Part shown: in pieces, positions 32,115 through 43,860 of the stretch
Position numbering within the stretch: position 1 is the stretch's first letter
Layout of the letters: the number at the start of each line of letters is the position of its first letter
DNA from: Escherichia coli
Lineage (GTDB): Bacteria; Pseudomonadota; Gammaproteobacteria; Enterobacterales; Enterobacteriaceae
DNA length: 64,000 nucleotides
NCBI GenBank assembly: GCA_902500125.1
Contig: GCA_902500125.1_4132.1
Strand: one strand, 5' to 3'
The notes under the pieces: model-generated
Seen by the model: the letters and a program-made list of their open reading frames with translations, nothing else
Told to the model about the DNA's origin: nothing
Databases searched by the model: none
Program-made: the position numbers and the translations under genes

Positions 32115-32130
32115 TTAAACACATAGAGAC

Positions 32131-32222
32131 AGGGGAAGCTCCTAGTGAACAACCTTTATGTACAGGCGAATTGTTAAAATTCAGCCTGGACAAATGCGAT
32201 CACTAGGATTCTCCCCAGGCTA
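32131..32222. repeat. interleaved inverted repeats (A-B-A'-B')
   Basis: A GGGGAAGCTCCTAGTGA 32132-32148 / A' TCACTAGGATTCTCCCC 32200-32216; B AGCCTGG 32183-32189 / B' CCAGGCT 32215-32221. Confidence 0.45.
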
Positions 32223-32290
32223 AACCCCGTAATCATAGGTAGTCATAAGTAATCATATATAAACATTTATATGAGCACCGTAGAATCACA

Positions 32291-32388
32291 GAATGATTAT
32301 ATATGATTCAGTACTGATTAGTATAGACAAGATTGCTCAAGAATGCACGGAAATGTGTGTGAATGATTATATATGATTCAGTACTGAT
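32291..32388. repeat. 28-bp direct repeat pair
   Basis: GAATGATTATATATGATTCAGTACTGAT at 32291-32318 and 32361-32388. Confidence 0.8.
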
Positions 32389-32674
32389 ATGCCACTAAGT
32401 AGGCAGAGGAAGTCTGCCGTACTTTGTAGTTTCCAAGCTCCTTTTCCATTTTGCAAATTACATCAAATGTAATCAAAAGTAATCACACAATGATTAGTAC
32501 TGAATTATTACTTTCACCTTAATTACAATTACCCTTTTACCCTTCGGGGTAAAATTCCATTACCCCTTGAGGCTCCAGCAAAAAGTTGGTTAGTACTCCA
32601 TCCTAAATCTCGATCCTAAAAATTTTGGAGTACCTATGAAATAAAAGTTGGATCTTCGAAAGTTGAAATTTACG

Positions 32675-32704
32675 TTGGGACGTTTATGATTTGTGGGATA
32701 TAAT
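32675..32704 (+). promoter_or_regulatory. possible promoter (weak -35)
   Basis: TTGGGA 32675, 18 nt, TATAAT 32699; same layout as 6022-6051. Confidence 0.35.
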
Positions 32705-32762
32705 GATGTTTGTAGTCGGGTAGTTCTCAAGAATATCAGTACTGAATAATGAAAGAAAGCTA

Positions 32763-32790
32763 TTGACATTATGATTCAGTACTGTATAAT
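32763..32790 (+). promoter_or_regulatory. sigma70-like promoter with no downstream ORF
   Basis: TTGACA 32763-32768, 16 nt (CAGTACTG), TATAAT 32785-32790, GTTCTACATAGAGAG start region; no SD or ORF follows. Confidence 0.55.
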
Positions 32791-32976
32791 GTTCTACATA
32801 GAGAGATGAGTTGCCGCAAACAATTCATTCACTCTACCTCCTGTCGTGAGACAGTACTGAAAGGATAGTTCCTCCTATGGGTGGTACATCTTTTTATAAC
32901 CTCTTTTTTCGTAATATAAACAGTACTGATATTAACAGAATGGTGTCAGTACTGATTTTAATCTAAAGCATTATGC

Positions 32977-32995
32977 CACCAGCTTGTGCTGGTGG
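32977..32995. other. hairpin made of Chi and its complement
   Basis: CCACCAGC-ttgt-GCTGGTGG; + strand Chi at 32988-32995. Confidence 0.8.
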
Positions 32996-33192
32996 ATTCC
33001 CTCTAACAGTATTCAGTACTACATGATGGTCTTCATCCTCCTAGGGTAACATAGTGAGGGCTATGATGGCAGTACTGAATACTCCCTTTCAAAAGATAGA
33101 TCTATGGTATAGTACTGACGGATTTTGGGTGTAGTTACCCTGGGTGGATTTTGGACGTAGATATGTCTAGCCCTCCAGAAGTCTGGAAGTAA

Positions 33193-33328
33193 AGATGGCT
33201 ATCCATCTAGACGGCTAAACGGCTAGATTTCTGGATGGCTGGATGGCTAGATTTCTGGATGGCTGGATGGCTAGACGTTTGGACGGCTAAACGGCTAGAT
33301 GGTTACACGTCTGGAAGTATAGACGGCT
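33193..33328. repeat. iteron-like array of the octamer RRAYGGCT (10-11 copies), with 24-bp tandem unit x2
   Basis: AGATGGCT 33193, AGACGGCT 33209, AAACGGCT 33217, GGATGGCT 33233/33241/33257/33265, GGACGGCT 33281, AAACGGCT 33289, AGACGGCT 33321; flanked by GTCTGGAAGTA 33181 and 33309. Confidence 0.8.
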
Positions 33329-33489
33329 AAATCAAAATTTTATTTTGTTTTTTCCAATAGTTCCCCTACCGCGTGGGGATAGTTTCCCCGCAGTATCTGG
33401 AGTTAGATTTTTCTGAATCTGGAATCATTATCTTATAAACTGGGGGCAATGTCAACGGCCTGGACGGATATTTTTAAAAATTTTTTCAG

Positions 33490-33580
33490 TACTGAATTTT
33501 GGGCGTAACTATGCACCCGGTGGGCTTGAGTCTTTCTCGACTTGATGGAACTATTATACAGTACTGAAAAAATAAAGCAA
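33490..33580 (-). promoter_or_regulatory. U element: promoter + conserved transcribed core
   Basis: Minus strand TTGCTT (33580-33575), 16 nt, TATAAT (33558-33553), then ...ATCAAGTCGAGAAAGACTCAAGCCCACCGGGTGC (core 33525-33513). Confidence 0.45.
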
Positions 33581-33639
33581 TACCCTGGAAGCAAAAAAAT
33601 TTTAATTAATTTGCTTGCTATCCTGGGCCGGACTATGGT

Positions 33640-33702
33640 ACTATATTTCAGTACTGAGAAAGTGCGTTTGCCTGCTAGGGTGCGGGAGTGTATCCTTTTT
33701 TT
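33640..33702 (+). promoter_or_regulatory. U element, degenerate copy (core + T7)
   Basis: CTAGGGTGCGGGAGTGTATCC 33675-33695 followed by T7; no good promoter; converges on next element. Confidence 0.3.
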
Positions 33703-33711
33703 ATATCTTGA

Positions 33712-33796
33712 ATTTTGGGCGTAATTCCGCACCCCCTGGGGTTTCCGCTTTCTCGCGTCTATGTAGTAATTATACGCTTTTTCAGGATCAAGTCAA
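33712..33796 (-). promoter_or_regulatory. U element: promoter + conserved transcribed core
   Basis: Minus strand TTGACT (33796-33791), 16 nt, TATAAT (33774-33769), TACTACATAGACGCGAGAAAGCGGAAACCCCAGGGGGTGC. Confidence 0.45.
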
Positions 33797-33949
33797 TACC
33801 TAAAAACAAAATAATTGAAAATAATTTAACGCGTTTAAACGGCCCGTAAAGCCCTGGAATGATTAGAATGGTGCAAATGTATAGCTTAGGTGTATTAATG
33901 CGTTAGAATGCGTCTGAGGCCGTTTTACGGGGTATAGGGATGATTTAGT

Positions 33950-34115
33950 GGATTGATTCAGTACTGAATAATAGTACTCCTATATAGAAAGATAGTTCCC
34001 CTGGATTGATTCAGTACTGAATAATAGTACTCCTATATAGAAAGATAGTTCCCCTGGATGGTTGCAGTACTGAATGATAGTACTGAATAATAGTTCCCCT
34101 ATATAGAAAGAAAAC
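33950..34115. repeat. 53-bp tandem repeat, 2 exact copies + 1 diverged
   Basis: GGATTGATTCAGTACTGAATAATAGTACTCCTATATAGAAAGATAGTTCCCCT at 33950-34002 and 34003-34055; variant 34056-34115. Confidence 0.85.
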
Positions 34116-34142
34116 TATTTTAAAAGTATTTGTAGAAAGTAC

Positions 34143-34202
34143 TTGCAAACTAAGTTTAACGGCGTATAATGTTTTACATCGAGAGCGGGAACACTTCCCG
34201 CT
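34143..34202 (+). promoter_or_regulatory. PeSL-like cassette (early-type promoter + stem-loop)
   Basis: -35 TTGCAA 34143; -10 TATAAT 34165 + GTTTTACATC; hairpin 34184-34202; ATG 34226. Confidence 0.7.
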
Positions 34203-34225
34203 ACATATTACGAGAGATTAAAACG

Positions 34226-34588
34226 ATGGCGACTCAAATCACTAAAATTATTGCTAACCTGGTTAACTTTCGCGACGAGATGAAAGATCTTCCGGCAGAA
34301 ACGGTAAAAATTCACATTTCAGCTTATCGGGAACTTATTGCAATGTTACCGCTTAAGCGTGAACAATACGCCGCGACCGTGATGCTTGATGCGATGATCC
34401 ATAAGATGATCGCCAGTGATTTAACGATGGTTTATCAGTATATGGGCGAAAATTTCGCGGTGTATAGTAAACCAGTACCAGGAATGGAAAGTACAGAAGT
34501 ATTACACGGTTTAAATTTAAAACAAGATGCATGGGATAATATGCCTCGTTTCCTGGTATGGGCTGACAGTGGCAAGATTTACGAATAA
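34226..34588 (+). CDS. hypothetical protein (120 aa)
   Basis: ORF 34169 trimmed: its first 19 codons read through the -10 and hairpin; ATG 34226 follows GAGAGA. Confidence 0.65.
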   Translation: MATQITKIIANLVNFRDEMKDLPAETVKIHISAYRELIAMLPLKREQYAATVMLDAMIHKMIASDLTMVYQYMGENFAVYSKPVPGMESTEVLHGLNLKQDAWDNMPRFLVWADSGKIYE

Positions 34589-34602
34589 GTTTTAGAAAGT
34601 AC

Positions 34603-34661
34603 TTGCAAACTAAGTTTAAAAGCGTATAATGTTTTACATCAGGTGGGGAATAGTTCCCCAC
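34603..34661 (+). promoter_or_regulatory. PeSL-like cassette
   Basis: TTGCAA 34603; TATAAT 34625; hairpin GTGGGGAA-tag-TTCCCCAC 34643-34661; ATG 34682. Confidence 0.7.
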
Positions 34662-34681
34662 TATATAAGAGGATTAAAAAA

Positions 34682-34921
34682 ATGGCTAAATCAAAAATGT
34701 TCTTAGGTCACAAAAACAAAACTCATTGGAATGTAAGCCTTTGGATTAATAACGATGAGTCATTGTACCGGTTGGCCCAGGACTTTATTAACGATAGCAC
34801 TAATCGCAATGATGCGGCCCGTCATATGATGTTATTTTTAGAACAGACTGGACAAGATAAAACACCGGACGGATTCAAATATAGCACTACTGCGATCCGT
34901 GCGGCTATGGTTGGAATGTAA
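34682..34921 (+). CDS. hypothetical protein (79 aa), paralog of 36724..36963
   Basis: Trimmed from 34643; shared GHKNKTHWNVSLWINN..ESLYRLAQ...TPDGFKYSTTAIRAAMVGM. Confidence 0.7.
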   Translation: MAKSKMFLGHKNKTHWNVSLWINNDESLYRLAQDFINDSTNRNDAARHMMLFLEQTGQDKTPDGFKYSTTAIRAAMVGM

Positions 34922-35009
34922 TAGAATAGAATTTATTTAAAGTACTATTGCACGGGGATAGTACTTTATAATAGTGTTTTATTCATACACCAACGATAAG
35001 GGCAACAGC

Positions 35010-35276
35010 ATGAATATTAAGTATTTTGCGACGCGTGAACAAGCTCGGATCGCCGCTCGCCAGGACGGGGCAACGTTTAAAGATATGGGCGTACAATCGG
35101 AACGTGGTAAACGTTGGGCCATTGTAAAGCGTAGTACAGCCAGATCATTACAGTACTGGTTAGCGGCGTTAAAAAGTCCCGATAGTGTATCGCGTCGAGT
35201 GGTAGAAATAAAGCTCGACCGAAAGGGCAACCGCGTGACCGTGTACCGTACTAAAAAGATTGCAGTACTTGAATAA
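35010..35276 (+). CDS. hypothetical protein (88 aa), paralog of 46942..47337
   Basis: Trimmed from 34974; KYFATREQARIAARQDGATFKDMG...DRKGNRVTVY shared with 46942. Confidence 0.65.
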   Translation: MNIKYFATREQARIAARQDGATFKDMGVQSERGKRWAIVKRSTARSLQYWLAALKSPDSVSRRVVEIKLDRKGNRVTVYRTKKIAVLE

Positions 35277-35283
35277 AAAGTAC

Positions 35284-35342
35284 TTGCACCGTACTGATAA
35301 AAGCGTATAATGTTTTACATCGAGAGCGGGAACTCTTCCCGC
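35284..35342 (+). promoter_or_regulatory. PeSL-like cassette
   Basis: TTGCAC 35284; TATAAT 35306; hairpin 35326-35342; SD GGAG. Confidence 0.7.
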
Positions 35343-35363
35343 CTATAACCTGGAGTAATGAAA

Positions 35364-35594
35364 ATGACTAATATGTATATGACTGAAGTTAAAACCGTAA
35401 AAGATACTACCACGAATAAAACTACTTACTTACAGCGGATCTGTGGTGTATGGCAACGTATCAGCAAATCAAAGTACTTTAAATTAACATCATATGCAAA
35501 CCGTTCGGATTCATTCAGTACTGAAATAAAAGGTAATAAAGTACACCAATACGGCACTTATTATTATTACAGCCTGGACGCGATTGCAGTATAA
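35364..35594 (+). CDS. hypothetical protein (76 aa)
   Basis: ATG 35364 is 8 nt after GGAG (ATG 35358 is too close to the SD). Confidence 0.6.
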   Translation: MTNMYMTEVKTVKDTTTNKTTYLQRICGVWQRISKSKYFKLTSYANRSDSFSTEIKGNKVHQYGTYYYYSLDAIAV

Positions 35595-35624
35595 GCAGTT
35601 TACAAATCTTTACAATTGCCGGTA

Positions 35625-35704
35625 TTGACTTATTTTGTCAGTACTGGCATAATGTATTCATTGGCAGATAAGCCGTAGCCCATAGGGTGCGGGAGTGTAT
35701 CTAT
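35625..35704 (+). promoter_or_regulatory. U element: promoter + conserved transcribed core
   Basis: TTGACT 35625, 17 nt, CATAAT 35648; core GCCCATAGGGTGC 35678-35690; TGTATCTAT 35696-35704. Confidence 0.5.
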
Positions 35705-35734
35705 AGAAAAATTAGTTTAGTATAGTTACAATTG

Positions 35735-35797
35735 TGCACCCGGTGGGTTAGCTGTTGTCATGGGGTATATTATGCCAGTACTTGATAATGCTGTCAA
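35735..35797 (-). promoter_or_regulatory. U element, convergent partner of 35625-35704
   Basis: Minus strand TTGACA (35797-35792), 17 nt, CATAAT (35774-35769), core AACCCACCGGGTGC (35759-35746). Confidence 0.5.
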
Positions 35798-35843
35798 TAC
35801 TTTTTTTTAATATTCAGTACTGAAAACTATTTTTAAAAAGTAC

Positions 35844-35871
35844 TTGTAAACTATGTTTAAAGGCGTATAAT
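35844..35871 (+). promoter_or_regulatory. early-type promoter (upstream of tandem pair)
   Basis: AGTACTTGTAA: TTGTAA 35844; TATAAT 35866 + GTTTTACATC. Confidence 0.6.
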
Positions 35872-35876
35872 GTTTT

Positions 35877-35953
35877 ACATCAGGACGGGGAACGAAATAA
35901 GTAACTTCCCGTTAAGTAGCCCAGGAGTAAGGCACACGAAAAACTCCCCTGAT
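35877..35953 (+). ncRNA. conserved structured leader RNA (copy 1 of 3)
   Basis: Closing helix ATCAGG/CCTGAT; inner hairpin ACGGGGAA..TTCCCGT; motifs TAAGTAG, AGTAAG, ACGAAAAACT; near-identical at 46016-46090. Confidence 0.4.
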
Positions 35954-35961
35954 AAAATAGT

Positions 35962-35989
35962 TTGACAATAGAAAGTAAAAGCGTATAAT
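35962..35989 (+). promoter_or_regulatory. sigma70-like promoter (downstream of tandem pair)
   Basis: TTGACA 35962, 16 nt, TATAAT 35984; ATG 36022. Confidence 0.6.
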
Positions 35990-36021
35990 ACTTACATCAA
36001 CTACTGAATGAGGGTTACAAA

Positions 36022-36633
36022 ATGAAAACTATCACTACTACTACTTTTGTTATGGCTTTTTCTGAACTGAACGCAGAACAAAAAACGGCGGCTATCGAAC
36101 TGGTTCGGGATCGTGAGCGTTCATGTGAGGATAATTTCTTTGCTGAGGGCGTTATCGAGTACTATAAAGAAACAGTACTACCAGAATACGGCATAGATGA
36201 AGCTGAATTGCAATACAGTGGTTTTTGGTCGCAAGGTGACGGTGCATCAATCAGTACTAACCACGTTGACGCTGAGAAGTTTTTACGCAAGGTTAAGGCG
36301 TTAACGAAATATCGTTCAATCCGTCACCTGTTGAACGAGGATGATTTAGAAATGAGTGTAGAACGTTTCCAATCACGCTACGCACACGAAAACACGGTAG
36401 GCGGTTGCGTTGATACTCGCTACACTGATTTAACTGTAAAACAGGCGGCATTGGCTGAGGATCTGGAAAACTTACTGACTGATGCGATCCGTGAATTATC
36501 TCGTAAGTTGTACCGTGATTTAGAGAATGCATATGAGGATCAATTCACTACTGAAAACATTACTGCACTGATTGAGGGTAACGAATATCAATTCAATGTT
36601 ATTGATGGCGTAGTGGAATCAATCGAATATTAA
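36022..36633 (+). CDS. hypothetical protein (203 aa)
   Basis: ORF track; GAGGG upstream; acidic; motif GFWSQGDGAS; function not recognised. Confidence 0.7.
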   Translation: MKTITTTTFVMAFSELNAEQKTAAIELVRDRERSCEDNFFAEGVIEYYKETVLPEYGIDEAELQYSGFWSQGDGASISTNHVDAEKFLRKVKALTKYRSIRHLLNEDDLEMSVERFQSRYAHENTVGGCVDTRYTDLTVKQAALAEDLENLLTDAIRELSRKLYRDLENAYEDQFTTENITALIEGNEYQFNVIDGVVESIEY

Positions 36634-36644
36634 TTTAAAAAGTA

Positions 36645-36705
36645 CTTGTAAACTAAGTTTAAAAGCGTATAATACTTTACATCAAGGCGGGGAGTGGTTC
36701 CCCGC
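36645..36705 (+). promoter_or_regulatory. PeSL-like cassette
   Basis: TTGTAA 36645; TATAAT 36668; hairpin GCGGGGA-gtggt-TCCCCGC 36687-36705. Confidence 0.7.
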
Positions 36706-36723
36706 TCAAACGAGGATTTAAAA

Positions 36724-36963
36724 ATGGCTAGTACTAAAACTTACAACGGACACAAAAACAAAACTCATTGGAATGTAAGCCTTTGGATTAATAACGGTGA
36801 GTCATTGTATCGGCTTGCTCAAAGTTGCATCGCACAAAGTAGAACTAAAGATATTGCTGCGGAATGTATGTACCGCAGATTAAAAGCCAACGGTACTACT
36901 ACAACGCCGGACGGCTTTAAGTATAGCACTACTGCGATCCGTGCTGCAATGGTTGGAATGTAA
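36724..36963 (+). CDS. hypothetical protein (79 aa), paralog of 34682..34921
   Basis: Trimmed from 36694 to ATG 36724 after GAGGA. Confidence 0.7.
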   Translation: MASTKTYNGHKNKTHWNVSLWINNGESLYRLAQSCIAQSRTKDIAAECMYRRLKANGTTTTPDGFKYSTTAIRAAMVGM

Positions 36964-37020
36964 TATTCAGTACTGAGATAATGGCGGGTAATAGTTCCCG
37001 CCTTTACTGAGGGTTATCTA

Positions 37021-37281
37021 ATGAGTAAAGTAATTAGCTATACAGCACTAAGCAAGTCATTATCTATTAGCCAGTGCACCGATGGTTATTGGCTTTATGA
37101 TGAAACGCGTGGAATGAATTTAGCTATGCGTGCAAAAACTGCTGAGGCGGCGTATCTTGAGGCACTGGAATACTACCAGGAACGTTTAACGGAAGTAGAA
37201 GAAGATTATAAAAGCCTCAAAGCGAAAGTAGATCATTTCGTCGGTCAATTCATCGAGGAAGACGACGATAAACAATACTGA
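37021..37281 (+). CDS. hypothetical protein (86 aa)
   Basis: ORF track; GAGGG upstream; preceded by hairpin GGCGGG-taatagtt-CCCGCC. Confidence 0.6.
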   Translation: MSKVISYTALSKSLSISQCTDGYWLYDETRGMNLAMRAKTAEAAYLEALEYYQERLTEVEEDYKSLKAKVDHFVGQFIEEDDDKQY

Positions 37282-37291
37282 AAAAAAGTAC

Positions 37292-37350
37292 TTGCAATTA
37301 GTTTTCAGTACTGTATAATGGTTTACATCAAAGGGAGAAATGGTTCTCCC
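37292..37350 (+). promoter_or_regulatory. PeSL-like cassette
   Basis: TTGCAA 37292; TATAAT 37314; hairpin GGGAGAA-atgg-TTCTCCC 37333-37350. Confidence 0.7.
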
Positions 37351-37369
37351 TGGTAATGAGGAAAATAAA

Positions 37370-37591
37370 ATGGCTAATATCACTACTCTTTCCCAACTGG
37401 AAGCACTGGTGAAATCTATGCGGGAACATGCCGACAAAATCGGCGTACAAGATCCAGCCGTTTGCTTCTGCGACGAATTGAATGATGATACCCTGGTAAT
37501 AGCAGAAGTCCAGGACGTTTCTAACTATTCATCGCGTTACACTGGCGGCGTAGCAAATAAAGGCGACTTCTGTTTATACCTTACAAAATAA
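37370..37591 (+). CDS. hypothetical protein (73 aa)
   Basis: Trimmed from 37340 to ATG 37370 after GAGGAA. Confidence 0.65.
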   Translation: MANITTLSQLEALVKSMREHADKIGVQDPAVCFCDELNDDTLVIAEVQDVSNYSSRYTGGVANKGDFCLYLTK

Positions 37592-37595
37592 CAAC

Positions 37596-37626
37596 GCGGG
37601 GAGATAATAACTCCCCGTTACTTTTT
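37596..37626 (+). terminator. rho-independent terminator
   Basis: CGGGGAG-ataataa-CTCCCCG then TTACTTTTT. Confidence 0.6.
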
Positions 37627-37639
37627 CAGTACTGAATCA

Positions 37640-37726
37640 TTTAATAGACGGATCTCGGCACCCGGTGGGTTAGTGACTGTTTCGTCTTGATGTAGTAATT
37701 ATGCCAGTACTGGATGCACTTGTCAA
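37640..37726 (-). promoter_or_regulatory. U element: promoter + conserved transcribed core
   Basis: Minus strand TTGACA (37726-37721), 17 nt, CATAAT (37703-37698), TACTACATCAAGACGAAACAGTCACTAACCCACCGGGTGC (core 37671-37658). Confidence 0.5.
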
Positions 37727-37759
37727 CAACTATTTTTCAAATACTTTTTATTAAAATAC

Positions 37760-37814
37760 TTGCAATTAGTTTTTAAACGCGTATAATGTTTTGCATAGGG
37801 GGAGCGGTTCCCCC
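37760..37814 (+). promoter_or_regulatory. PeSL-like cassette
   Basis: TTGCAA 37760; TATAAT 37782; hairpin GGGGGA-gcggt-TCCCCC 37798-37814. Confidence 0.7.
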
Positions 37815-37835
37815 TGGTAACTAAGGAATAATAAA

Positions 37836-38072
37836 ATGCTTGAACAAATCAAATCAACGACTTCGAATGTAACGGGAACGGTAGCACACTTTACTAGTGA
37901 TGAATCGCGGGGCGTACCCTATTGTGCTGTACATGTAAACACTGATGGCAACTACTGGTTTACTGTTTACGGATCATATTCCTTTGGACGACCAGGGCAT
38001 CAAAAAATTCTGGATAAAGTACAGCCAACGGGTAAAAATATCACTGCTGAAATGTTTTATAAAAAATCATAA
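37836..38072 (+). CDS. hypothetical protein (78 aa)
   Basis: ORF track; TAAGGAA SD. Confidence 0.65.
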   Translation: MLEQIKSTTSNVTGTVAHFTSDESRGVPYCAVHVNTDGNYWFTVYGSYSFGRPGHQKILDKVQPTGKNITAEMFYKKS

Positions 38073-38077
38073 AGTAC

Positions 38078-38136
38078 TTGATAATAGTTTTTAGTACTGT
38101 ATAATATTTTACATCGCAAGGGGGAGCGGTTCCCCC
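38078..38136 (+). promoter_or_regulatory. PeSL-like cassette
   Basis: TTGATA 38078; TATAAT 38100; hairpin 38120-38136 identical to the one at 37798. Confidence 0.65.
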
Positions 38137-38156
38137 TGGTAACTAAGGATAATCAA

Positions 38157-38456
38157 ATGAAAATTGCAATCATCGCCCTGGCTTTATCTGTTTCCTCTTT
38201 CGCTGTTAATGCGTCATTAGATGTAAGTAGTGAAAAATTCATTCAGTGCACTGTTGCAATGACCGATGAAAGTACTGGCGAGATTGTATTAAAGGATCTG
38301 GAGATTCAGCCGGAAGCATTTAAAAACGGCCCGTTCCATGAAGAAGACGAAAACGGTAGCACGACAATTTATTATGATGCCAGTACTAAACGCGGTTCGG
38401 TCACTGTAATGGATACTGAGAAAGTAACGCATACCGGCGTTATTAATTGCCGTTGA
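38157..38456 (+). CDS. small secreted protein, signal-peptide/Cys-pair family
   Basis: Signal peptide MKIAIIALALSVSSFAVNA; Cys pair IQCTVA ... VINCR. Confidence 0.7.
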   Translation: MKIAIIALALSVSSFAVNASLDVSSEKFIQCTVAMTDESTGEIVLKDLEIQPEAFKNGPFHEEDENGSTTIYYDASTKRGSVTVMDTEKVTHTGVINCR

Positions 38457-38477
38457 TAGATACTACGGGGTAACATC

Positions 38478-38708
38478 ATGACTAAGCGAATTGTTTTACT
38501 TAACGAAAGCAGTACTACACAACTACTTAACGCCGTGCATTATGATATTGAAACGAGCGTTAATCTTATCAGTACTGTAGTACTGTTGGACACTGGAAAG
38601 GTCGCCAATGATAAAGCGATTGCAGGTATATTAACGGATCTTGAGCCTGGTAGCAGTGCACCAATAACGTTAAATGGTAAAGTGTTTAATATTTTACTCA
38701 CTGATTAA
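38478..38708 (+). CDS. hypothetical protein (76 aa)
   Basis: ORF track; GGGG upstream. Confidence 0.6.
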   Translation: MTKRIVLLNESSTTQLLNAVHYDIETSVNLISTVVLLDTGKVANDKAIAGILTDLEPGSSAPITLNGKVFNILLTD

Positions 38709-38714
38709 GTACAT

Positions 38715-38737
38715 AGCCCACCTGGTGGGCTTTTTTG
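38715..38737 (+). terminator. rho-independent terminator
   Basis: AGCCCACCTGGTGGGCT + T6. Confidence 0.75.
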
Positions 38738-38790
38738 TTTTTGTAGTATCGTAGTACTGAGATACTTTGAAAATAGTTTTAAGAAAGTAG

Positions 38791-38818
38791 TTGACATTAC
38801 CGCAGAAAAGCGTAGAAT
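38791..38818 (+). promoter_or_regulatory. sigma70-like promoter
   Basis: TTGACA 38791, 16 nt, TAGAAT 38813. Confidence 0.55.
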
Positions 38819-38823
38819 GTATT

Positions 38824-38898
38824 ACATCAAGACGGGGAGCACTAAGTAGACCGCCAGTAAGTCGAACGAAAAACTGGACACGTCGAGAAAACTTTGAT
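38824..38898 (+). ncRNA. structured leader RNA (diverged copy 3)
   Basis: ACATCAAGACGGGGAG...; closing helix ATCAAG/CTTTGAT; shares TAAGTAG, AGTAAG, ACGAAAAACT with 35877 and 46016. Confidence 0.3.
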
Positions 38899-38941
38899 AC
38901 ACTAATAAACGTAAACTAAACTTTAATTGAGGATTTATAAA

Positions 38942-39424
38942 ATGGCTAATGTAAAATCATTCATCAAAGCACTGGTAGCAAATGAAACTAACGTCGCGGC
39001 TGAGATCCTGGCTGAACTGGATAACGATACCATGAAAGCGGTACGCAATAATTTTAACATCGCGTACAGTACTGCGAAAGAACTACAAGCAAATAAAGCG
39101 GCAGAGATTGAAGCAGCGAAGGCGGCCCGTGAAGCAGAACTACAAGCAACAATTGAAAGTATCCAGGCGGCAGTAGTTGGGCTGGATCTGGAAGTAGTTA
39201 CCGAGATGGCACAAAAAGCCCTGGCGGTTAAGTACGGGGAAGATAAGCCGGAATCTAAGCCTAAAAAATGGATTCAAGAACGTGTAGCGGTAGTACTTGA
39301 TAACGGGGAAGAATATCTGATTCCGGTGCGTGGTAACTGCATTGCGGTAGTACTGGATGCTATCAAAGAAAGCGGATTGACTCGCGAGGAATGGATCGAA
39401 GCTCATCGCAAAGTTGAAGCATAA
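38942..39424 (+). CDS. hypothetical protein (160 aa), Ala/Glu-rich helical centre
   Basis: Trimmed from 38927 to ATG 38942 after GAGGA. Confidence 0.65.
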   Translation: MANVKSFIKALVANETNVAAEILAELDNDTMKAVRNNFNIAYSTAKELQANKAAEIEAAKAAREAELQATIESIQAAVVGLDLEVVTEMAQKALAVKYGEDKPESKPKKWIQERVAVVLDNGEEYLIPVRGNCIAVVLDAIKESGLTREEWIEAHRKVEA

Positions 39425-39445
39425 CAATTAAAGTACTGAATCATT

Positions 39446-39472
39446 AGCCCACTTATACAGTGGGCTTTTTTG
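39446..39472 (+). terminator. rho-independent terminator
   Basis: AGCCCACT-tatac-AGTGGGCT + T6. Confidence 0.75.
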
Positions 39473-39552
39473 TGTTTATCGTTTACCAGGCCACCAGCAC
39501 CGCCTAGAAACGATTCTAACGTATTAAACTGTTTATCTGATGCATTGCCCTA

Positions 39553-39560
39553 GCTGGTGG
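39553..39560 (+). other. intergenic Chi octamer
   Basis: GCTGGTGG; its complement CCACCAGC lies at 39491-39498. Confidence 0.8.
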
Positions 39561-39625
39561 CGTTAAAGTCGTTAGAATGCGATTGAGTGCGTTTAAAGTA
39601 TTTTGCAAAAAGTAATAAAAAGTAC

Positions 39626-39687
39626 TTGCACGATTAAGAGATTAGCGTATAATGTTTTACATCGAGAGGGGGAAACGGTTCTCCTTC
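39626..39687 (+). promoter_or_regulatory. PeSL-like cassette
   Basis: TTGCAC 39626; TATAAT 39648; imperfect hairpin 39666-39687. Confidence 0.65.
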
Positions 39688-39708
39688 CAAATCAAAGGAA
39701 TCAAAACA

Positions 39709-39936
39709 ATGGCTATCGTAATCGCTTATGTAACTGGTACTACTGGCACTTCTTCTACTGTTGCTGTAATTACCAACAAGAAAGGTGCGGAATTACATTC
39801 TGCAATGGATACCTGGGCGGTAAATGAGTTCGGTCAGTGGGCAAGTGTAGCATATGTTGAAACCTATCAAGTGCCAACCATTAGCTTAACGGATCTCGGT
39901 GTAGATCGTATCCTTTGCCTGGATGAATTAAATTAA
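39709..39936 (+). CDS. hypothetical protein (75 aa)
   Basis: Trimmed from 39652 to ATG 39709 after AAGGAA. Confidence 0.65.
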   Translation: MAIVIAYVTGTTGTSSTVAVITNKKGAELHSAMDTWAVNEFGQWASVAYVETYQVPTISLTDLGVDRILCLDELN

Positions 39937-39944
39937 AAAAGTAC

Positions 39945-40005
39945 TTGCAAAGTAAGTTGGATAAAGTATAATACATTACATCAAGGGGAGAAAATGGTTC
40001 TCCCC
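39945..40005 (+). promoter_or_regulatory. PeSL-like cassette
   Basis: TTGCAA 39945; TATAAT 39967; hairpin GGGGAGAA..TTCTCCCC 39985-40005. Confidence 0.7.
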
Positions 40006-40023
40006 ACTAAGAGGAAACTAAAA

Positions 40024-40167
40024 ATGAAAACTTGTCAATGTGGTAAAAAATCTATTACTGGTTTGAAACGGGGCGTTGCTCTTTGTCAGTATCACTATAA
40101 CGCTCAGGTATGGGGTAAAGAGTGGGCCGACCAGGTGGAAGCAGTAAAGAAAGCAAAAAGTAAGTAA
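40024..40167 (+). CDS. small Cys-containing protein (47 aa)
   Basis: Not in ORF track; own cassette + AGAGGAAA SD; MKTCQCGKK...ALCQYHYNAQ (CxC...CxxH). Confidence 0.55.
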   Translation: MKTCQCGKKSITGLKRGVALCQYHYNAQVWGKEWADQVEAVKKAKSK

Positions 40168-40186
40168 AATTATTATCACAGTACTA

Positions 40187-40215
40187 TTGACATAGATTGA
40201 TAGTACTGGCATAAT
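40187..40215 (+). promoter_or_regulatory. class-2 promoter (AGTACT-flanked)
   Basis: AGTACTATTGACA: TTGACA 40187, 17 nt, CATAAT 40210; about 85-bp unit repeated at 40445-40542. Confidence 0.65.
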
Positions 40216-40248
40216 AGATTTTATCAAGACAACTAAGAGGAAACAATA

Positions 40249-40461
40249 ATGGCTATCATCACAAAAATCAAAGTAAACAAATCACTGGTTAAGCTGGAAG
40301 AAGTGAAAGAAGGTTATAAAGTATCGTGGTGCGGCATGTATCGGATTTTTACAGATGTTGACGATGCAATCAATTACTACACTGACACGGTAAAAAACTT
40401 TGTTCGTGCTGATGTGGTTATGGCAGTGGCAACACACAAAGCATCGAAAGAAAGTAAGTAA
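40249..40461 (+). CDS. hypothetical protein (70 aa)
   Basis: ORF track; AGAGGAAA SD. Confidence 0.65.
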   Translation: MAIITKIKVNKSLVKLEEVKEGYKVSWCGMYRIFTDVDDAINYYTDTVKNFVRADVVMAVATHKASKESK

Positions 40462-40480
40462 AAATATTATCACAGTACTA

Positions 40481-40509
40481 TTGACATAGTTTGATAGTAC
40501 TGGCATAAT
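40481..40509 (+). promoter_or_regulatory. class-2 promoter (repeat of 40187)
   Basis: TTGACA 40481, CATAAT 40504. Confidence 0.65.
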
Positions 40510-40542
40510 AGATTTTATCAAGACAACTAAGAGGAAATTAAA

Positions 40543-40887
40543 ATGGCTAATATCAACACTATCGCAAAACAAAATATCAACCTGTCTTCTGTTGAAGTTG
40601 TACATATTGCCGCTCGGCGTTGGTTCCAGGCTTCATATGGTAACACTTATTTCTCTTTAAGTGTAGACGTAGAAATTGATGGTAATTTTATTGAAGTAGT
40701 AAACGTGCCGTTCCAATATGGATACGGGGATCACTTTGACACTGTAGCAATGGAAGAATTTAGCAAGGTTATTAATATGGAAGATAAAGAGTTTTTACGC
40801 GGTTCTTATCTTTCCCGTTTTTGCCGTGACAATAATATCACTGTTTACAGTTCGGTAACTGATGTTAAACGCAAAAAAGATCTTTAA
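40543..40887 (+). CDS. hypothetical protein (114 aa), paralog of 46523..46846
   Basis: Shared NTY..S, F.YGYG and C-terminal DVKRKKD(L/M). Confidence 0.7.
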   Translation: MANINTIAKQNINLSSVEVVHIAARRWFQASYGNTYFSLSVDVEIDGNFIEVVNVPFQYGYGDHFDTVAMEEFSKVINMEDKEFLRGSYLSRFCRDNNITVYSSVTDVKRKKDL

Positions 40888-40967
40888 TTAGCTTTACTTT
40901 ATGCAGATACTTTGATATAGTGTCTGCATAGGGGAAAGAAATTAAATTAACTTAAGAGGATCGTATA

Positions 40968-41237
40968 ATGAAAAATATCAGTACTTTAATCGATGCAGGT
41001 ACACATGTTCGGCGGTCTATGGTTGCAACCAGTACTACAAAACAAGTAGCGAGCGGTTATCTTGTATTTGTGCACGATGGTAAACTCCTGGAACGTTCAA
41101 TCAATTTTGATGTTAAAAACAATTGCCGTTTTATTATCTTTCGCCGTGAACAATATAAGATCGACATTCCAGCGAAGCCCATTAGCGGTGCGTACAATGT
41201 GCAATCATTGTTTGAGCGTCAACCATACACCTATTAA
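40968..41237 (+). CDS. hypothetical protein (89 aa)
   Basis: ORF track; AAGAGGA SD. Confidence 0.6.
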   Translation: MKNISTLIDAGTHVRRSMVATSTTKQVASGYLVFVHDGKLLERSINFDVKNNCRFIIFRREQYKIDIPAKPISGAYNVQSLFERQPYTY

Positions 41238-41288
41238 TCAAAACATCGTTAGCGGTCGATTCAGGCCGCTTATATTGGGGATTATACC

Positions 41289-41561
41289 ATGAACGTTAAT
41301 CAAGTACTGAATGAGATCGAAAGCATCATTAAACCGATGAAGCGTACTGATGCTATGTTAACACCGGAAGAATGCCGCCTTTATGAGCGTTACAGCGTCG
41401 AACAAGTCCAGGCAATGGCTATGGCTACCCCAGCCGTTAAACCGCCTGAGAATGCGTTACAGGACGTTACAGGGGATTATATCATCAATCCAGTACTAGG
41501 GAAGATGGCTGCAATCACCGAAGATCAACAAGACTACTTAAGCCAGTACTTAAAAGGTTAA
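41289..41561 (+). CDS. hypothetical protein (90 aa)
   Basis: ORF track; GGGGA upstream. Confidence 0.6.
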   Translation: MNVNQVLNEIESIIKPMKRTDAMLTPEECRLYERYSVEQVQAMAMATPAVKPPENALQDVTGDYIINPVLGKMAAITEDQQDYLSQYLKG

Positions 41562-41566
41562 TTAAT

Positions 41567-41776
41567 ATGCTTACTGTACAGGATAAGATCGACATCTTAA
41601 AGGTTAATATGTATGTGATTGATGCCGTACCTGGTAAAGTATTTGCATACGATGACACTACTGTAAGCGATTTCTACTATAGCCAGGCCGTGGGGGATCT
41701 TTCTGTACAGTCGGTTATTGAAAACGTAGTTAATGCAGCGTATGAGCATTTACTTTCAAATAGTACTTGCAATTAG
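41567..41776 (+). CDS. hypothetical protein (69 aa)
   Basis: ORF track; last codons ..NSTCN* are encoded by the next cassette's AATAGTACTTGCAATTAG. Confidence 0.6.
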   Translation: MLTVQDKIDILKVNMYVIDAVPGKVFAYDDTTVSDFYYSQAVGDLSVQSVIENVVNAAYEHLLSNSTCN

Positions 41777-41826
41777 TTTTTAAACGCGTATAATGTTTTA
41801 CATGAAGGGGAGAAATGATTCTCCCC
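41767..41826 (+). promoter_or_regulatory. PeSL-like cassette
   Basis: TTGCAA 41767; TATAAT 41789; hairpin GGGGAGAA-atga-TTCTCCCC 41807-41826. Confidence 0.7.
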
Positions 41827-41845
41827 ACTAATTAAGGAATATGAA

Positions 41846-41992
41846 ATGAAAGCATCAAAAAAGAGTAATACTAAGAAAGCACGTTCACCTTTCGCTGGGG
41901 TATTCCCTTTACGTTTCGTTGATGAAGTAGTTTCCTACCCGCCGGGCCTTACTCCTGAGATGGTAGAAAGTTTGCGTAAATCTAAAAAATAG
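41846..41992 (+). CDS. small basic protein (48 aa)
   Basis: Not in ORF track; own cassette + AAGGAA SD; MKASKKSNTKKARSPFAG...; stop TAG lies in next cassette. Confidence 0.5.
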   Translation: MKASKKSNTKKARSPFAGVFPLRFVDEVVSYPPGLTPEMVESLRKSKK

Positions 41993-41995
41993 TAC

Positions 41996-42055
41996 TTGCA
42001 ATTAGTTTTTAGTACTGTATAATAGTTTACATGAAGGGGAGAAATGATTCTCCCC
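41996..42055 (+). promoter_or_regulatory. PeSL-like cassette
   Basis: TTGCAA 41996; TATAAT 42018; hairpin 42036-42055. Confidence 0.7.
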
Positions 42056-42073
42056 AATAACAGGAGAAACAAA

Positions 42074-42226
42074 ATGAAACAATACAACGCTCGGTTTGAT
42101 GTTACTATCGGTAACGGCAAAGGTCAATTCTCTTTCAGTACTCGCAAAAGTTATACAGAAAACTTCCTGCGTAATTGTGCACTGACCGCCGCTCAAATTA
42201 AACATTATTTTCAGGCTAAAAAATGA
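42074..42226 (+). CDS. small protein (50 aa)
   Basis: Trimmed from 42044 to ATG 42074 after AGGAGAAA. Confidence 0.55.
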   Translation: MKQYNARFDVTIGNGKGQFSFSTRKSYTENFLRNCALTAAQIKHYFQAKK

Positions 42227-42312
42227 AATCATTAGCTTATTACAGTTCAGCGGTGATCGGTGCATTGATCGCGGCATTGTTAGTAACCTATCTATTCTTT
42301 ATGGTGATTTAA
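42223..42312 (+). CDS. hydrophobic micro-protein (29 aa)
   Basis: ATGA-coupled to previous gene; MKSLAYYSSAVIGALIAALLVTYLFFMVI (one TM). Confidence 0.4.
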   Translation: MKSLAYYSSAVIGALIAALLVTYLFFMVI

Positions 42313-42453
42313 ATGAATCCTAACGGTTTAATTTACAGTACTCCTAAAACGAAAGCAGATAAAGCGAAAGCACGTAAAGCGAAAGTAAAGGAGTACATTA
42401 AGCAAGGCATGACGCGAAAGGCCGCACTACTCAGAGTAAAGGCTGAAAAATAA
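42313..42453 (+). CDS. small basic protein (46 aa)
   Basis: ATG directly after previous TAA; Lys-rich KADKAKARKAKVKEY. Confidence 0.4.
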   Translation: MNPNGLIYSTPKTKADKAKARKAKVKEYIKQGMTRKAALLRVKAEK

Positions 42454-42460
42454 TTGAAAA

Positions 42461-42548
42461 AAGGGTTGACTCCGGTCAGTCCCTTTGCTATTATATATAC
42501 ATACCAGCGATACACTGGCGGCCCATAGGGTGCACAAATGTATCTATT
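42461..42548 (+). promoter_or_regulatory. composite cassette: terminator hairpin carrying -35, plus U element core
   Basis: GGGTTGAC-tccg-GTCAGTCCC; TTGACT 42466, 17 nt, TATTAT 42489; core GCCCATAGGGTGC 42521-42533; TGTATCTATT 42539-42548. Confidence 0.55.
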
Positions 42549-42588
42549 ATATAAGTATTGAGTACTGAAAACTATTTTTAAAAAGTAC

Positions 42589-42648
42589 TTGCAAACTATC
42601 TCAATAAGCGTATAATGTTTTACATCGAAAGGGGAAACGGTTTCCCCT
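42589..42648 (+). promoter_or_regulatory. PeSL-like cassette
   Basis: TTGCAA 42589; TATAAT 42611; hairpin AGGGGAAA-cgg-TTTCCCCT 42630-42648. Confidence 0.7.
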
Positions 42649-42667
42649 GGTAATAAGGAAACAAATC

Positions 42668-43009
42668 ATGACTATCTCAATTGCTCAATCTAACTTTGAA
42701 AATGAAATCATCGCCCAGGCACTGCGTTTAAATGATGGTCGGGCCGAAATTAATTACGGTTTCAATTCAGGCGGTTGTGAAAAATATCAGTACTTTGTAA
42801 CGGCTGATGGCGGTGTCCTGGGTATCAATACAGTTATTGTAAACATCCAAAAAATTAATTTCAATGATCCAGACGATAGCCAGTTTTACATCACGGGCGT
42901 AGACGTGAACTATGAGGATGACTCACTAACTGATGACTACACTGGTGAAACGTTAGAAAGTGCATACTGTGAAGATGATTATCAGTCCGGTCCAGAAGAT
43001 TTCGAATAA
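42668..43009 (+). CDS. hypothetical acidic protein (113 aa)
   Basis: ORF track; TAAGGAAA SD. Confidence 0.65.
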   Translation: MTISIAQSNFENEIIAQALRLNDGRAEINYGFNSGGCEKYQYFVTADGGVLGINTVIVNIQKINFNDPDDSQFYITGVDVNYEDDSLTDDYTGETLESAYCEDDYQSGPEDFE

Positions 43010-43023
43010 TATAAAAAAATAGT

Positions 43024-43083
43024 TTGACAATAGATTATAGTACTGTATAATAGTTTACATCAAGGGGAGAAAAACTTCTCCCC
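43024..43083 (+). promoter_or_regulatory. PeSL-like cassette
   Basis: TTGACA 43024; TATAAT 43046; hairpin 43064-43083. Confidence 0.7.
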
Positions 43084-43105
43084 ACTAACAGAGAGAGAAA
43101 ACAAA

Positions 43106-43318
43106 ATGGCTAATATCTGCACTGTACTGAAAAATGCAAAACAAGTTTTATTTTCTGATCACGATCATTTAAACAAGGATATTACTGGCGTTCGGAATAT
43201 CAAAGATGTAAAAAGTGTTATGGGTATCTATTGCAATATGAAACGTGTTGGAACGTTCGGCGACAAAGTACTATACCAGGCAGGGGATTACAATTTTACA
43301 CTGACTATCATTAACTAA
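43106..43318 (+). CDS. hypothetical protein (70 aa)
   Basis: ORF track; GAGAGAGAAA SD region. Confidence 0.65.
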   Translation: MANICTVLKNAKQVLFSDHDHLNKDITGVRNIKDVKSVMGIYCNMKRVGTFGDKVLYQAGDYNFTLTIIN

Positions 43319-43337
43319 AAATATATTACCAGTACTA

Positions 43338-43365
43338 TTGACATAGTTTGATAGTACTGTATAAT
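43338..43365 (+). promoter_or_regulatory. class-2 promoter
   Basis: AGTACTATTGACA: TTGACA 43338, 16 nt, TATAAT 43360. Confidence 0.65.
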
Positions 43366-43409
43366 AAGTTTTATAAACAGTAGTTAACTTAACCTAAGAG
43401 AGAAATAAA

Positions 43410-43553: not shown

Positions 43554-43560
43554 TATTATA

Positions 43561-43587: not shown

Positions 43588-43658
43588 AATCCTTTACCCT
43601 ATACAATGCCAGTACTAAACCGTTTATCTCGTTAGAATGCGTTACAGGACGTTTGACA

Positions 43659-43856: not shown

Positions 43857-43860
43857 TCTA

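Follow-up and report, generated by a model that had tools for sequence, protein, structure and literature searches.

Introduction

Convergent promoters in antisense arrangements are known from several phages, including P22 (sar/ant), coliphage 186 (pR/pL) and lambda (OOP/cII). The promoter-early stem-loop (PeSL) is a regulatory cassette that T4-type phages carry in repeated form in their early regions (Arbiol et al. 2010, PMC2839356; Comeau et al. 2014, PMC4122927). Here, we analyzed a 64,000-nucleotide stretch of DNA assigned to Escherichia coli (contig GCA_902500125.1_4132.1 of assembly GCA_902500125.1; hereafter the window), in which short repeated units that we refer to as U-elements occur both singly and as two pairs that face each other, one of them at positions 35,625 to 35,797. 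The U-element is a previously undescribed small structured-RNA unit that has its own promoter, and no description of it was found in the literature that we searched on Asteriusvirus, phAPEC6, Rak2-like small RNAs or its motif.

The 3 kb around the pairs are 94–98% identical to jumbo coliphages of the genus Asteriusvirus (BF17, slurp01, vB_Ec-M-J, PBECO4 and 121Q), and, judged by this similarity, the source of the window is a 121Q/PBECO4-like member of that genus. The record of vB_Ec-M-J carries an annotated direct terminal repeat (DTR) at 1–21,525, and base 1 of vB_Ec-M-J corresponds to position 32398 of the window. The left part of the window belongs to the unique right end of the genome, and the DTR, which is ~21.5 kb long, follows from roughly 32398 to about 53,900. 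The DTR is densely filled with small plus-strand early genes located behind predicted strong sigma70-type promoters. Rak2-like jumbo phages, to which Asteriusvirus belongs, are distant relatives of T4 (CBB paper, PMC5259590). Among these phages are candidates for therapeutic use against E. coli and Klebsiella, and almost nothing is understood of the ~20-kb terminal repeat that they devote to host takeover.

Two Convergent Pairs of U-Elements

A core-motif search followed by nhmmer identified 11 U-elements in the window, all within the DTR, with cores starting at 33518−, 33678+, 33734−, 35685+, 35741−, 37663−, 42528+, 43924+, 45910+, 48922+ and 51670+. The weakest of these had an nhmmer E-value of 0.002 and the next match one of 1.1. 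Read from 5′ to 3′, a unit consists of a sigma70-like promoter, an A start ~6–7 nt past the −10, a hairpin (HP1), U-A-R, CCC-AYN-GGGUGC, 4–6 variable bases and a 3′ arm of the form U-R-Y-R-Y-C-Y. The motif RCCC-AYN-GGGUGC, upstream of the Y/R-patterned 3′ arm, is invariant across the family. In most units, HP1 is a 4–5-bp hairpin with a purine-rich loop (AGAUAA, GAGAAA, GCGAAA or AGAACAA); a short class of units has no HP1 stem and retains an A-rich stretch. All 11 units in the window have a sigma70-like promoter at a fixed distance from the core. Among 60 distinct units, which were gathered with a regular expression for the core motif, every promoter matched the consensus at 8 or more of 12 positions and 50 did so at 10 or more, and the orientation of the motif and its distance to the promoter were constant in all 60.

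Four of the units form the two pairs, A/B and C/D, and the family covariance model matched each of the four. An earlier note on this DNA had described the units at 35625(+) and 35797(−) as facing each other with 45 nt between their cores, and the spacing between GGGTGC (35685–35690) and GCACCC (35736–35741) is exactly 45 bp. The second facing pair that it reported, across a run of seven T residues (33696–33702), has cores at 33678–33683 and 33729–33734, again 45 bp apart. Each module has the proposed layout of promoter-core...core′-promoter′, that is, two homologous units in opposite orientation with their predicted promoters directed inward (promoter scan, covariance model). Measured from −35 to −35, the modules are 173 bp and 182 bp long, compared to the about 175–195 bp given in the note.

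Unit A (35622–35706, plus strand) has the promoter TTGACT-17-CATAAT at 35625–35653, with its −35 at 35625–35630, a TG-extended −10 at 35648–35653 and a predicted start near 35660 (promoter scan). Its RNA would comprise HP1 (GGC-AGAUAA-GCC), the core GCCCAUAGGGUGC and the 3′ arm UGUAUCU, and the covariance model matched 35657–35706 with 47.6 bits (E = 1.2e-11). Orthologues of unit A occur in RaK2, Muenster, CBB and GAP32; in RaK2 and Muenster the orthologue is single, and the RNA part is highly conserved across genera. Unit B (35720–35800, minus strand) belongs to the short class without HP1. Its promoter, TTGACA-17-CATAAT with TG (35797–35769; −35 at 35797–35792, −10 at 35774–35769), matches 11 of 12 consensus positions and is followed by the leader CAUGACAACAGCUAA and the core ACCCACCGGGUGC, which reads as GCACCC on the plus strand. 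The unit was matched by the covariance model at 35720–35764 (E = 3e-4) and by nhmmer (E = 3e-6), and its orthologue in Munch is single and located directly before a bidirectional terminator. The 45-bp interval of the pair (35691–35735) holds both 3′ arms and an A/T-rich centre, and a repeat search found the flanking arms 35622–35656 and 35766–35800 to be a 35-nt inverted repeat with 74% complementarity.

Unit C (33615–33702, plus strand) has a weaker promoter, TTGCTA-18-TACTAT (33615–33644, 8 of 12), and a covariance-model match at 33649–33699 (E = 6.4e-6). It also has a terminator-like site, formed by a second hairpin (HP2) and the T run at 33696–33702, which the terminator scan placed at 33677–33696. 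Its orthologue in Muenster lies at about an equal distance (~1.28 kb) from the genome end. Facing it, unit D (33713–33799, minus strand) has the promoter TTGACT-16-TATAAT (33796–33769; −35 at 33796–33791, −10 at 33774–33769; 11 of 12) and the HP1 CGC-GAGAAA-GCG, and was matched at 33713–33763 (E = 3.6e-8).

Such pairs are not particular to this window. Across all loci we found 16 distinct convergent pairs, and the cores are separated by 45 bp in 14 of them, in at least five lineages and at several genomic positions. The centres of the pairs are ~20 bp long and A/T-rich, and cannot be aligned between pairs despite the constant 45-bp gap. The remaining two, with 56 and 67 bp (locus L029 and Muenster), are not independent of each other because they are homologous and share a central palindrome. 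For the same reason, helical phasing of the spacings 45, 56 and 67 was considered and dropped. The A/B module was conserved at least as well as its 3-kb neighbourhood in 10 of the 11 relatives compared, for example in SP27 (99.1% vs. 93.9%) and CRJP21 (98.7% vs. 94.5%); in phage A4 the values were 89.2% and 89.7%.

The expectation in the earlier note that the layout would produce complementary RNAs agrees with our folding predictions. Read-through RNAs of either pair would be complementary and would fold as long hairpins that are more stable than their shuffled counterparts. For pair A/B, the predicted folding energies were −42.7 kcal/mol (z −4.9) on the plus strand and −28.8 kcal/mol (z −4.6) on the minus strand, and for pair C/D they were −41.8 kcal/mol (z −3.7) and −29.4 kcal/mol (z −2.3), respectively.

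RNA Structure of the U-Element

In the window and 16 related loci, a covariance model built from 43 units gave 92 matches, of which 72 are distinct. An alignment made with MAFFT set HP1 out of register, and the covariance-model-based alignment was used, which is biased toward the structure of the model. In that alignment all four base pairs of HP1 vary on both sides (GC, CG, AU and UA), with 114 compensated cells compared to 48.5 ± 5 in shuffles, none of which reached the observed value in 500 trials; slid controls were far lower. A mutual-information scan returned exactly the four HP1 pairs as its top four column pairs. By this comparative evidence HP1 is an RNA hairpin, proven by compensatory changes, and the U-element is a structured RNA. 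G·U pairs are present in both HP1 and HP2, which fits an RNA made from the promoter strand because the opposite strand would give A/C mismatches.

Two folds are conceivable for the core. In HP2, which pairs GGGUGC with YRYRYCY, the 5′ arm is invariant and the changes in its partner are one-sided only (G·U to G-C, U-A to U·G), with 86% of cells paired. The alternative is a mini-hairpin, RCCC-AYN-GGGU, for which variants in loop length (3–4 nt) keep both CCC and GGG and one double change (CCU/AGG) was seen.

Several other readings of the unit were tried and rejected. A mini-open reading frame or minigene, with a Shine-Dalgarno-like GGGUG or GGAG followed by NUG UAU CUA UAG, was set aside, as the G at position 12 (the third base of NUG) is present in only 32 of the 60 units and is explained by C5–G12 pairing. 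A pseudoknot between AGAUA of the HP1 loop and UAUCU of the 3′ arm was likewise rejected: the 3′ arm stays the same whatever the loop, and the two segments do not covary. The resemblance of the core to an ops-like element, a DnaA box or a repeat of the clustered regularly interspaced short palindromic repeats (CRISPR) type lies in variable positions or is too short. A search of the whole window against Rfam 15 returned no covariance-model match at the gathering score, and at E ≤ 10 the region 33400–37800 gave only scattered matches (E ≥ 1.5, far under gathering), one of which (IS102, 35421–35662) clips the promoter of unit A. ARAGORN found no transfer or transfer-messenger RNA.

Orientation of Units and Their Followers

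Comparison of what lies 3′ of each unit in the window, Muenster and CBB (34 units) revealed a consistent relation to orientation. Thirteen of the units are oriented against the genes, and about 12 of these stand directly before a terminator or a partner. In four unpaired minus-strand units (window 37663−, Muenster 5014− and 11992−, and CBB 10239−), a hairpin like that of an intrinsic terminator begins 45–47 nt past the first G of GGGTGC, and the Muenster terminators are also annotated in that record. In paired units, the core of the partner starts 51 nt past the same G. As gene-opposing units thus have either a partner or a terminator at about the same distance, the partner appears to substitute for a terminator. 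The sole exception to the rule is 33518−, which lies in a gene-free leader of 2 kb where there is nothing to protect. Isolated plus-strand units, on the other hand, have no terminator within 170 nt in 10 of 13 cases and lead into the next early promoter and gene.

The earlier note had also proposed that a pair might act as a bidirectional terminator. This was borne out in part and indirectly, by the position of the partner at about terminator distance (51 vs. 45–47 nt), but a canonical hairpin with a T run is present at one of the four units only: no U-run follows the hairpin on either strand of pair A/B or on the minus strand of C/D, and only unit C, with its hairpin at 33677–33696 and T run, passes the terminator scan. 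The two predicted starts of a pair are separated by ~110 bp, so that two polymerases could not both pass about +38. Because what follows a unit differs with its orientation, and because orthologous unit subtypes precede different genes in different genera, the unit is best seen as a self-contained module that is independent of orientation. Its important parts seem to be the promoter and the initial ~50 nt of the RNA.

Distribution of the Family

U-elements were seen only in Rak2-like jumbo phages, in five or more genera: Asteriusvirus, Alcyoneusvirus (RaK2, Muenster, K64-1), Mimasvirus CBB, GAP32 and Munch-like Salmonella phages. They are also borne by IMG/VR contigs of 345–378 kb. Muenster and CBB have ~12 units each, all inside the annotated 20–22-kb terminal repeat, and none occurs in the next ~28 kb. 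When the complete genome of EC22.5-2 (352 kb) was scanned in full, 10 units were found, all of them in a single 19-kb stretch that corresponds to the terminal repeat.

Outside of these phages the searches were negative. A search of 5,426 E. coli genomes with a 53-nt consensus unit returned nothing, although in a database of this size (28 Gb) matches of less than about 24 nt would fall outside the E-value limit. The pattern CCCAYNGGGTGCN5TGTATCT had 27 scattered matches in 185,579 bacterial and archaeal GTDB genomes, none of them enterobacterial, where we estimate ~35 by chance. Some unrelated GC-rich IMG/VR contigs (L005, L006, L013–L015, L017, L019, L022, L024, L025, L027 and L030) fit the pair pattern and share the 12-mer with the U-element core. 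These were rejected as U-elements, as they contain direct and inverted arrays of TGACCCACTGGGTGCA iterons and have no promoter or HP1. In Muenster, a promoter-less copy of the core (GCACCCAGTGGG) lies at positions 12–29, 17 nt from the left genome end defined by PhageTerm.

Interpretation and Alternatives

We give roughly an even chance to the following reading, which is built from sequence: U-elements are immediate-early non-coding RNA units whose RNA carries a trans-acting protein-binding motif, and the pairs are compact, mutually limiting versions that insulate the neighbouring genes. In a Rak2-like jumbo phage, each would act as an immediate-early transcription unit in its own right. The host sigma70 RNA polymerase would initiate at its promoter, which is predicted to be strong from its match to the consensus. 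The product would be a non-coding RNA with HP1, RCCC-AYN-GGGUGC and the Y/R-patterned 3′ arm in its first 45–50 nt, and the unit would function in either orientation. From a gene-directed unit, transcription would continue into the next early promoter and gene. From a gene-opposing unit, it would proceed only about 45–50 nt past the core before being halted by a facing U-element or by a bidirectional intrinsic terminator that also serves the preceding gene. A convergent pair would then represent two RNA units placed tail to tail at a fixed spacing of 45 bp, each of which limits the other. The limitation could come about by formation of the long read-through hairpin, by head-on collision of polymerases and/or by RNase III cutting the complementary 3′ ends. 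Such a pair might also insulate the flanking early genes from read-through.

With 11 copies per terminal repeat there would be 22 per genome if both repeats carry them. Our best guess for the role of the RNA, by inference, is that of a trans-acting early RNA that binds a protein as a decoy or recruits it; the points behind this guess are the copy number, the strong early promoters, the shared 12-nt motif and the absence of a tie to particular downstream genes. More speculatively, and in our estimate rather unlikely in this full form, the ~22 strong promoters per genome would supply an abundant class of immediate-early RNAs of 45–100 nt whose invariant motif sequesters or recruits a host protein during takeover, with the pairs as a terminator-free design for two RNAs in about 180 bp. 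Conceivable targets include RNA-binding regulators, nucleases, accessory factors of RNA polymerase and defence sensors. Provided that it is produced as predicted, the RNA would represent a new family of phage non-coding RNA with a simple anatomy, and the convergent pairs with their fixed spacing would offer a natural example of how transcription units can limit one another in little space.

Several points weigh against the interpretation as immediate-early RNA units. Promoter activity, RNA ends and abundance are all deduced from the DNA. The fold of the core is ambiguous because the core is invariant, with HP2 and the RCCC/GGGU mini-hairpin fitting equally well, and the RNAs of single units are not significantly more stable than shuffles (z −0.4 to −1.7). 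Termination by the partner is not of the canonical intrinsic kind, because no U-run follows the hairpins of the pairs except at unit C. Plus-strand units without terminators would give a 5′ leader and not a discrete small RNA, unless it is processed. Finally, no complementary target sites for the 3′ arm (ATAGATACA) or the core were found in the window beyond the units themselves; the search returned lone ATAGATACA 9-mers at 29393(+) and 52549(−) and one core match with a single mismatch at 1771(−), about the number expected by chance.

The alternatives that we considered are not mutually exclusive with immediate-early RNA units. Function might reside in the pair as a whole, which would act as a transcription barrier in both directions or as a processing site, with the promoters being secondary. 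In that case the palindrome CCCAYNGGGUGC-N45-GCACCCNRUGGG with its flanking HP1 antisense would stop transcripts from either side or be cleaved in them, possibly by RNase III, an enzyme that cleaves sites in the early mRNA of phage T7. This would account for the long hairpins of the read-through RNAs (plus strand z −3.7 to −4.9), the constant 45-bp spacing, the position of pairs between co-directional genes or ahead of the first gene, the presence of a partner in the place of a terminator, and the gene at 35358–35594, which has no terminator of its own ahead of pair A/B (terminator scan, sequence). We nonetheless regard it as unlikely, as each arm also exists without a partner and then has the same promoter and RNA features (this holds for 7 of the 11 units in the window and for most of those in Muenster and CBB), no U-run follows the long hairpin except at unit C, and a pure terminator needs neither two strong promoters (10–11 of 12) nor a covarying 5′ hairpin. 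In another alternative, the RNA would act in cis, close to its promoter, to modify the transcribing polymerase or recruit a factor to it, like lambda nut boxB with N, like HK022 put RNA, or like an ops-type pause, and so allow early transcription to read through downstream terminators. Two small hairpins do lie immediately downstream of a strong promoter, the HP1 loops are purine-rich (GAGAAA, GCGAAA, AGAACAA) like those of boxB, plus-strand units come just after a terminator and have none of their own, and about half of the copies have a GG-N8-UG layout that agrees with the consensus elemental pause. Yet antitermination would be pointless for the ~12 of 13 gene-opposing units that stand directly before a terminator or partner, lambdoid phages have 2 nut or put sites compared to 11 copies per repeat here, there is no linkage to particular downstream genes, and no similarity to put, nut or ops is evident, although no similarity test was run; we consider a cis-acting role doubtful. 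Priming of replication is less probable still. T4 ori(uvsY) and ori(34), and the early RNA of oriE, provide the model, in which a G-rich RNA (GGGUGCGGAG) would form a persistent R-loop beside the A/T-rich spacer and pairs would initiate bidirectionally. Such a function would suit the orientation-independent design, the A/T-rich centre between two G-rich cores, the distant relationship of these phages to T4 (PMC5259590), and the location of units E, C and D near the genome end, in 2 kb that are free of genes and hold an 8-bp tandem array and 53-nt repeats. But eleven origins in 19 kb are implausible, an R-loop leaves the covarying 5′ hairpin and the invariant CCC partner of GGG unexplained, and most units have no adjacent iterons or helicase-loading features. 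We assign a very small likelihood to the conserved 12-mer being a DNA operator or roadblock at which a phage or host DNA-binding protein shuts the promoters off. RCCC-N3-GGGT is a short palindrome, some copies read ACCCA-T-TGGGT, and the unrelated GC-rich viral contigs use TGACCCACTGGGTGCA as iterons, but the constant orientation and promoter distance of the motif in all 60 distinct copies, the retention of CCC and GGG in loop-length variants (3–4 nt) with one compensated CCU/AGG change, and an adjacent HP1 that covaries as RNA all argue against it.

The earlier note had further pointed to a likeness with the footprint of a miniature inverted-repeat transposable element (MITE). The modules are indeed short (~175–180 bp), imperfect inverted repeats present in many copies, unit order is shuffled between genera, and one single unit is polymorphic and bounded by a 10-bp direct repeat. 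However, we found no target-site duplication at either pair (the flanks of A/B are ACAATTGCCG and TTTTTTTTAA), and, among near-full-length Asteriusvirus matches (those with at least 80% query coverage), A/B is present in all 36 and C/D in all 37. Because both pairs are fixed, insertion is refuted by the note's own criterion for relatives, namely that they would show the same fixed sequence with no insertion signature. In addition, the terminal inverted repeats are not confined to the ends of an element, as the arms also occur singly as complete, autonomous units; the family is limited to one 19-kb region of a 352-kb genome; and there are no copies in E. coli and only a chance level of matches in GTDB genomes. 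The one presence/absence polymorphism that we found concerns the single unit 43924, on a 318-bp cassette (43858–44174) found in 27 Asteriusvirus records and missing in 7. This cassette has no terminal inverted repeats, and its bounding 10-bp direct repeat, TTAAAATAAT, has its right copy within the ribosome-binding site (RBS)/start region of the next gene, as in PeSL-type recombination (PMC2839356). Its turnover fits recombination between regulatory cassettes (PMC2839356, PMC4122927) and not transposition. We therefore consider the MITE interpretation largely refuted, and the probability that the modules are mobile elements or their footprints close to negligible. The analysis thus removes a false lead and ties the turnover of the elements to the PeSL-type cassette recombination of T4-type phages.

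Other Units and Features of the Terminal Repeat

The seven remaining units in the window are all single. Unit E (33497–33580, minus strand) lies 160 bp to the left of C and has the promoter TTGCTT-16-TATAAT and the HP1 AGUC-GAGAAA-GACU (covariance-model match 33497–33547, E = 2.5e-9). Unit 37663 (37590–37726, minus strand), with its promoter at 37726–37698, GGGTGC from 37663 and a match at 37642–37692 (E = 3.7e-11), runs into a bidirectional terminator at 37617–37597, and its predicted RNA is ~105 nt. The plus-strand units are 42528 (42463–42549), 43924 (43861–43945), 45910 (45847–45931, short class), 48922 (48854–48943), which is the top-scoring copy with 59.4 bits, and 51670 (51607–51691, short class); all five were matched by the covariance model. 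In four of them (at 42463–42482, 45847–45874, 48854–48881 and 51607–51634) the −35 TTGACT lies in the stem of a terminator-like hairpin, AAAGGGATTGACTCCGGTCAGTCCCTTT, whose T-rich tail runs into the −10 TATTAT; in unit 42528 the promoter TTGACT-17-TATTAT lies inside the hairpin GGGTTGACTCCGGTCAGTCC with its T-rich tail. A similar overlap of hairpin and promoter, with a UUCG loop, occurs in units of Muenster and CBB, and was not seen at units A, B, C, D and E. Downstream of the 318-bp cassette with unit 43924 lies a DksA/TraR-like zinc-finger gene (44186–44443).

Promoters of two early genes (40187–40250 and 40481–40545) have a U-type promoter and the same leader, AUCAAGAC..ACUAA, as units 43924 and 37663, followed by an RBS and gene. 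This suggests a common origin of U-elements and ordinary gene leaders. Separate from the U-elements, an ordinary PeSL-like early cassette (family D1) with AAAGTACTTGCAAACTAAGTTTAAAAGCGTATAATGTTTTACATC, a GGGG..CCCC hairpin and an RBS occurs six times between 34131 and 37370, and two small genes in the same region, 34678–34923 and 36720–36965, are paralogous (repeat families D3 and D10).

Units E, C and D are housed in a gene-free leader of ~2 kb (32115–34168) at the left end of the DTR. The leader also contains an 8-bp tandem array (CTGGATGG / CTAGATTT) at 33215–33317, 53-nt tandem repeats at 33949–34120 and many copies of CAGTACTG, and is possibly a packaging, origin or injection-control region. 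A site at 33360–33393, GTTCCCC-N8-GGGGATA, has the outline and spacing of the E. coli type I-E CRISPR repeat, and is probably just another stem-loop of the GGGG/CCCC PeSL type. The palindrome CAGTACTG occurs 65 times in the whole window compared to 0.8 expected copies and is dense in 32300–34100. It is often found in promoter spacers just 5′ of the −10 (AGTACTGG-CATAAT), beside the −35 (AGTACTTGCAA) and after U-elements, and could serve a phage regulator as its site or belong to a promoter architecture peculiar to the phage. Chi sites (GCTGGTGG) are strongly enriched in the DTR, with 10 on the plus strand in 19 kb (32988–51722) compared to ~0.3 expected and only 2 on the minus strand; one, at 45935, is directly 3′ of unit 45910. 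This enrichment suggests that the genome end is protected from RecBCD.

Comparison with Described Systems

The put sites of HK022 and the nut sites of lambda resemble U-elements in having small hairpin RNAs with purine-rich loops right after early promoters. They differ in that U-elements are present in many copies, in both orientations and often immediately before terminators. Bidirectional intrinsic terminators are also intergenic inverted repeats that can fold on both strands, and a real one takes the place of the partner in minus-strand units. However, the pairs have no U-runs on either side except at unit C, their stems have internal loops, and each arm has a promoter. MITEs share with the modules their size, imperfect inverted repeat and copy number, from which the pairs are set apart by the lack of target-site duplications and host copies, and by being fixed in relatives, restricted to one genome region and composed of autonomous arms.

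With the convergent promoters of P22, 186 and lambda, the pairs have in common facing promoters about 60–110 bp apart, overlapping complementary RNAs and transcriptional interference, the last two of which are predictions for the U-elements. There, one of the partners is an mRNA, and the outcome is control of a gene or of the switch between lysis and lysogeny. Here, both partners are copies of one non-coding unit with no coding target, in a virulent phage.

PeSLs resemble U-elements in several respects. Both are small intergenic cassettes that recur in the plastic early regions of relatives of T4, and both have a strong sigma70-like early promoter with an A/T-rich upstream region. In the window, U-elements have all of the promoter features of this type, including the intergenic early location. 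PeSLs also have a GGGG...CCCC-type stem-loop that terminates upstream transcription, and four units in the window have a terminator-like hairpin of this kind around the −35. Both are also associated with gene-sized insertions and deletions via short homologies near the RBS and −10, represented here by the 318-bp cassette bounded by TTAAAATAAT. The differences concern what follows the promoter. A PeSL drives the gene behind it, whereas a U-element does not stand directly before an RBS or start codon: the next gene has its own proximal promoter, and minus-strand units face no gene. Instead, the U-element precedes a conserved non-coding RNA (HP1 and RCCC-AYN-GGGUGC) without an RBS, and, in contrast to PeSLs, it is found in both orientations and in convergent pairs at a fixed spacing of 45 bp.

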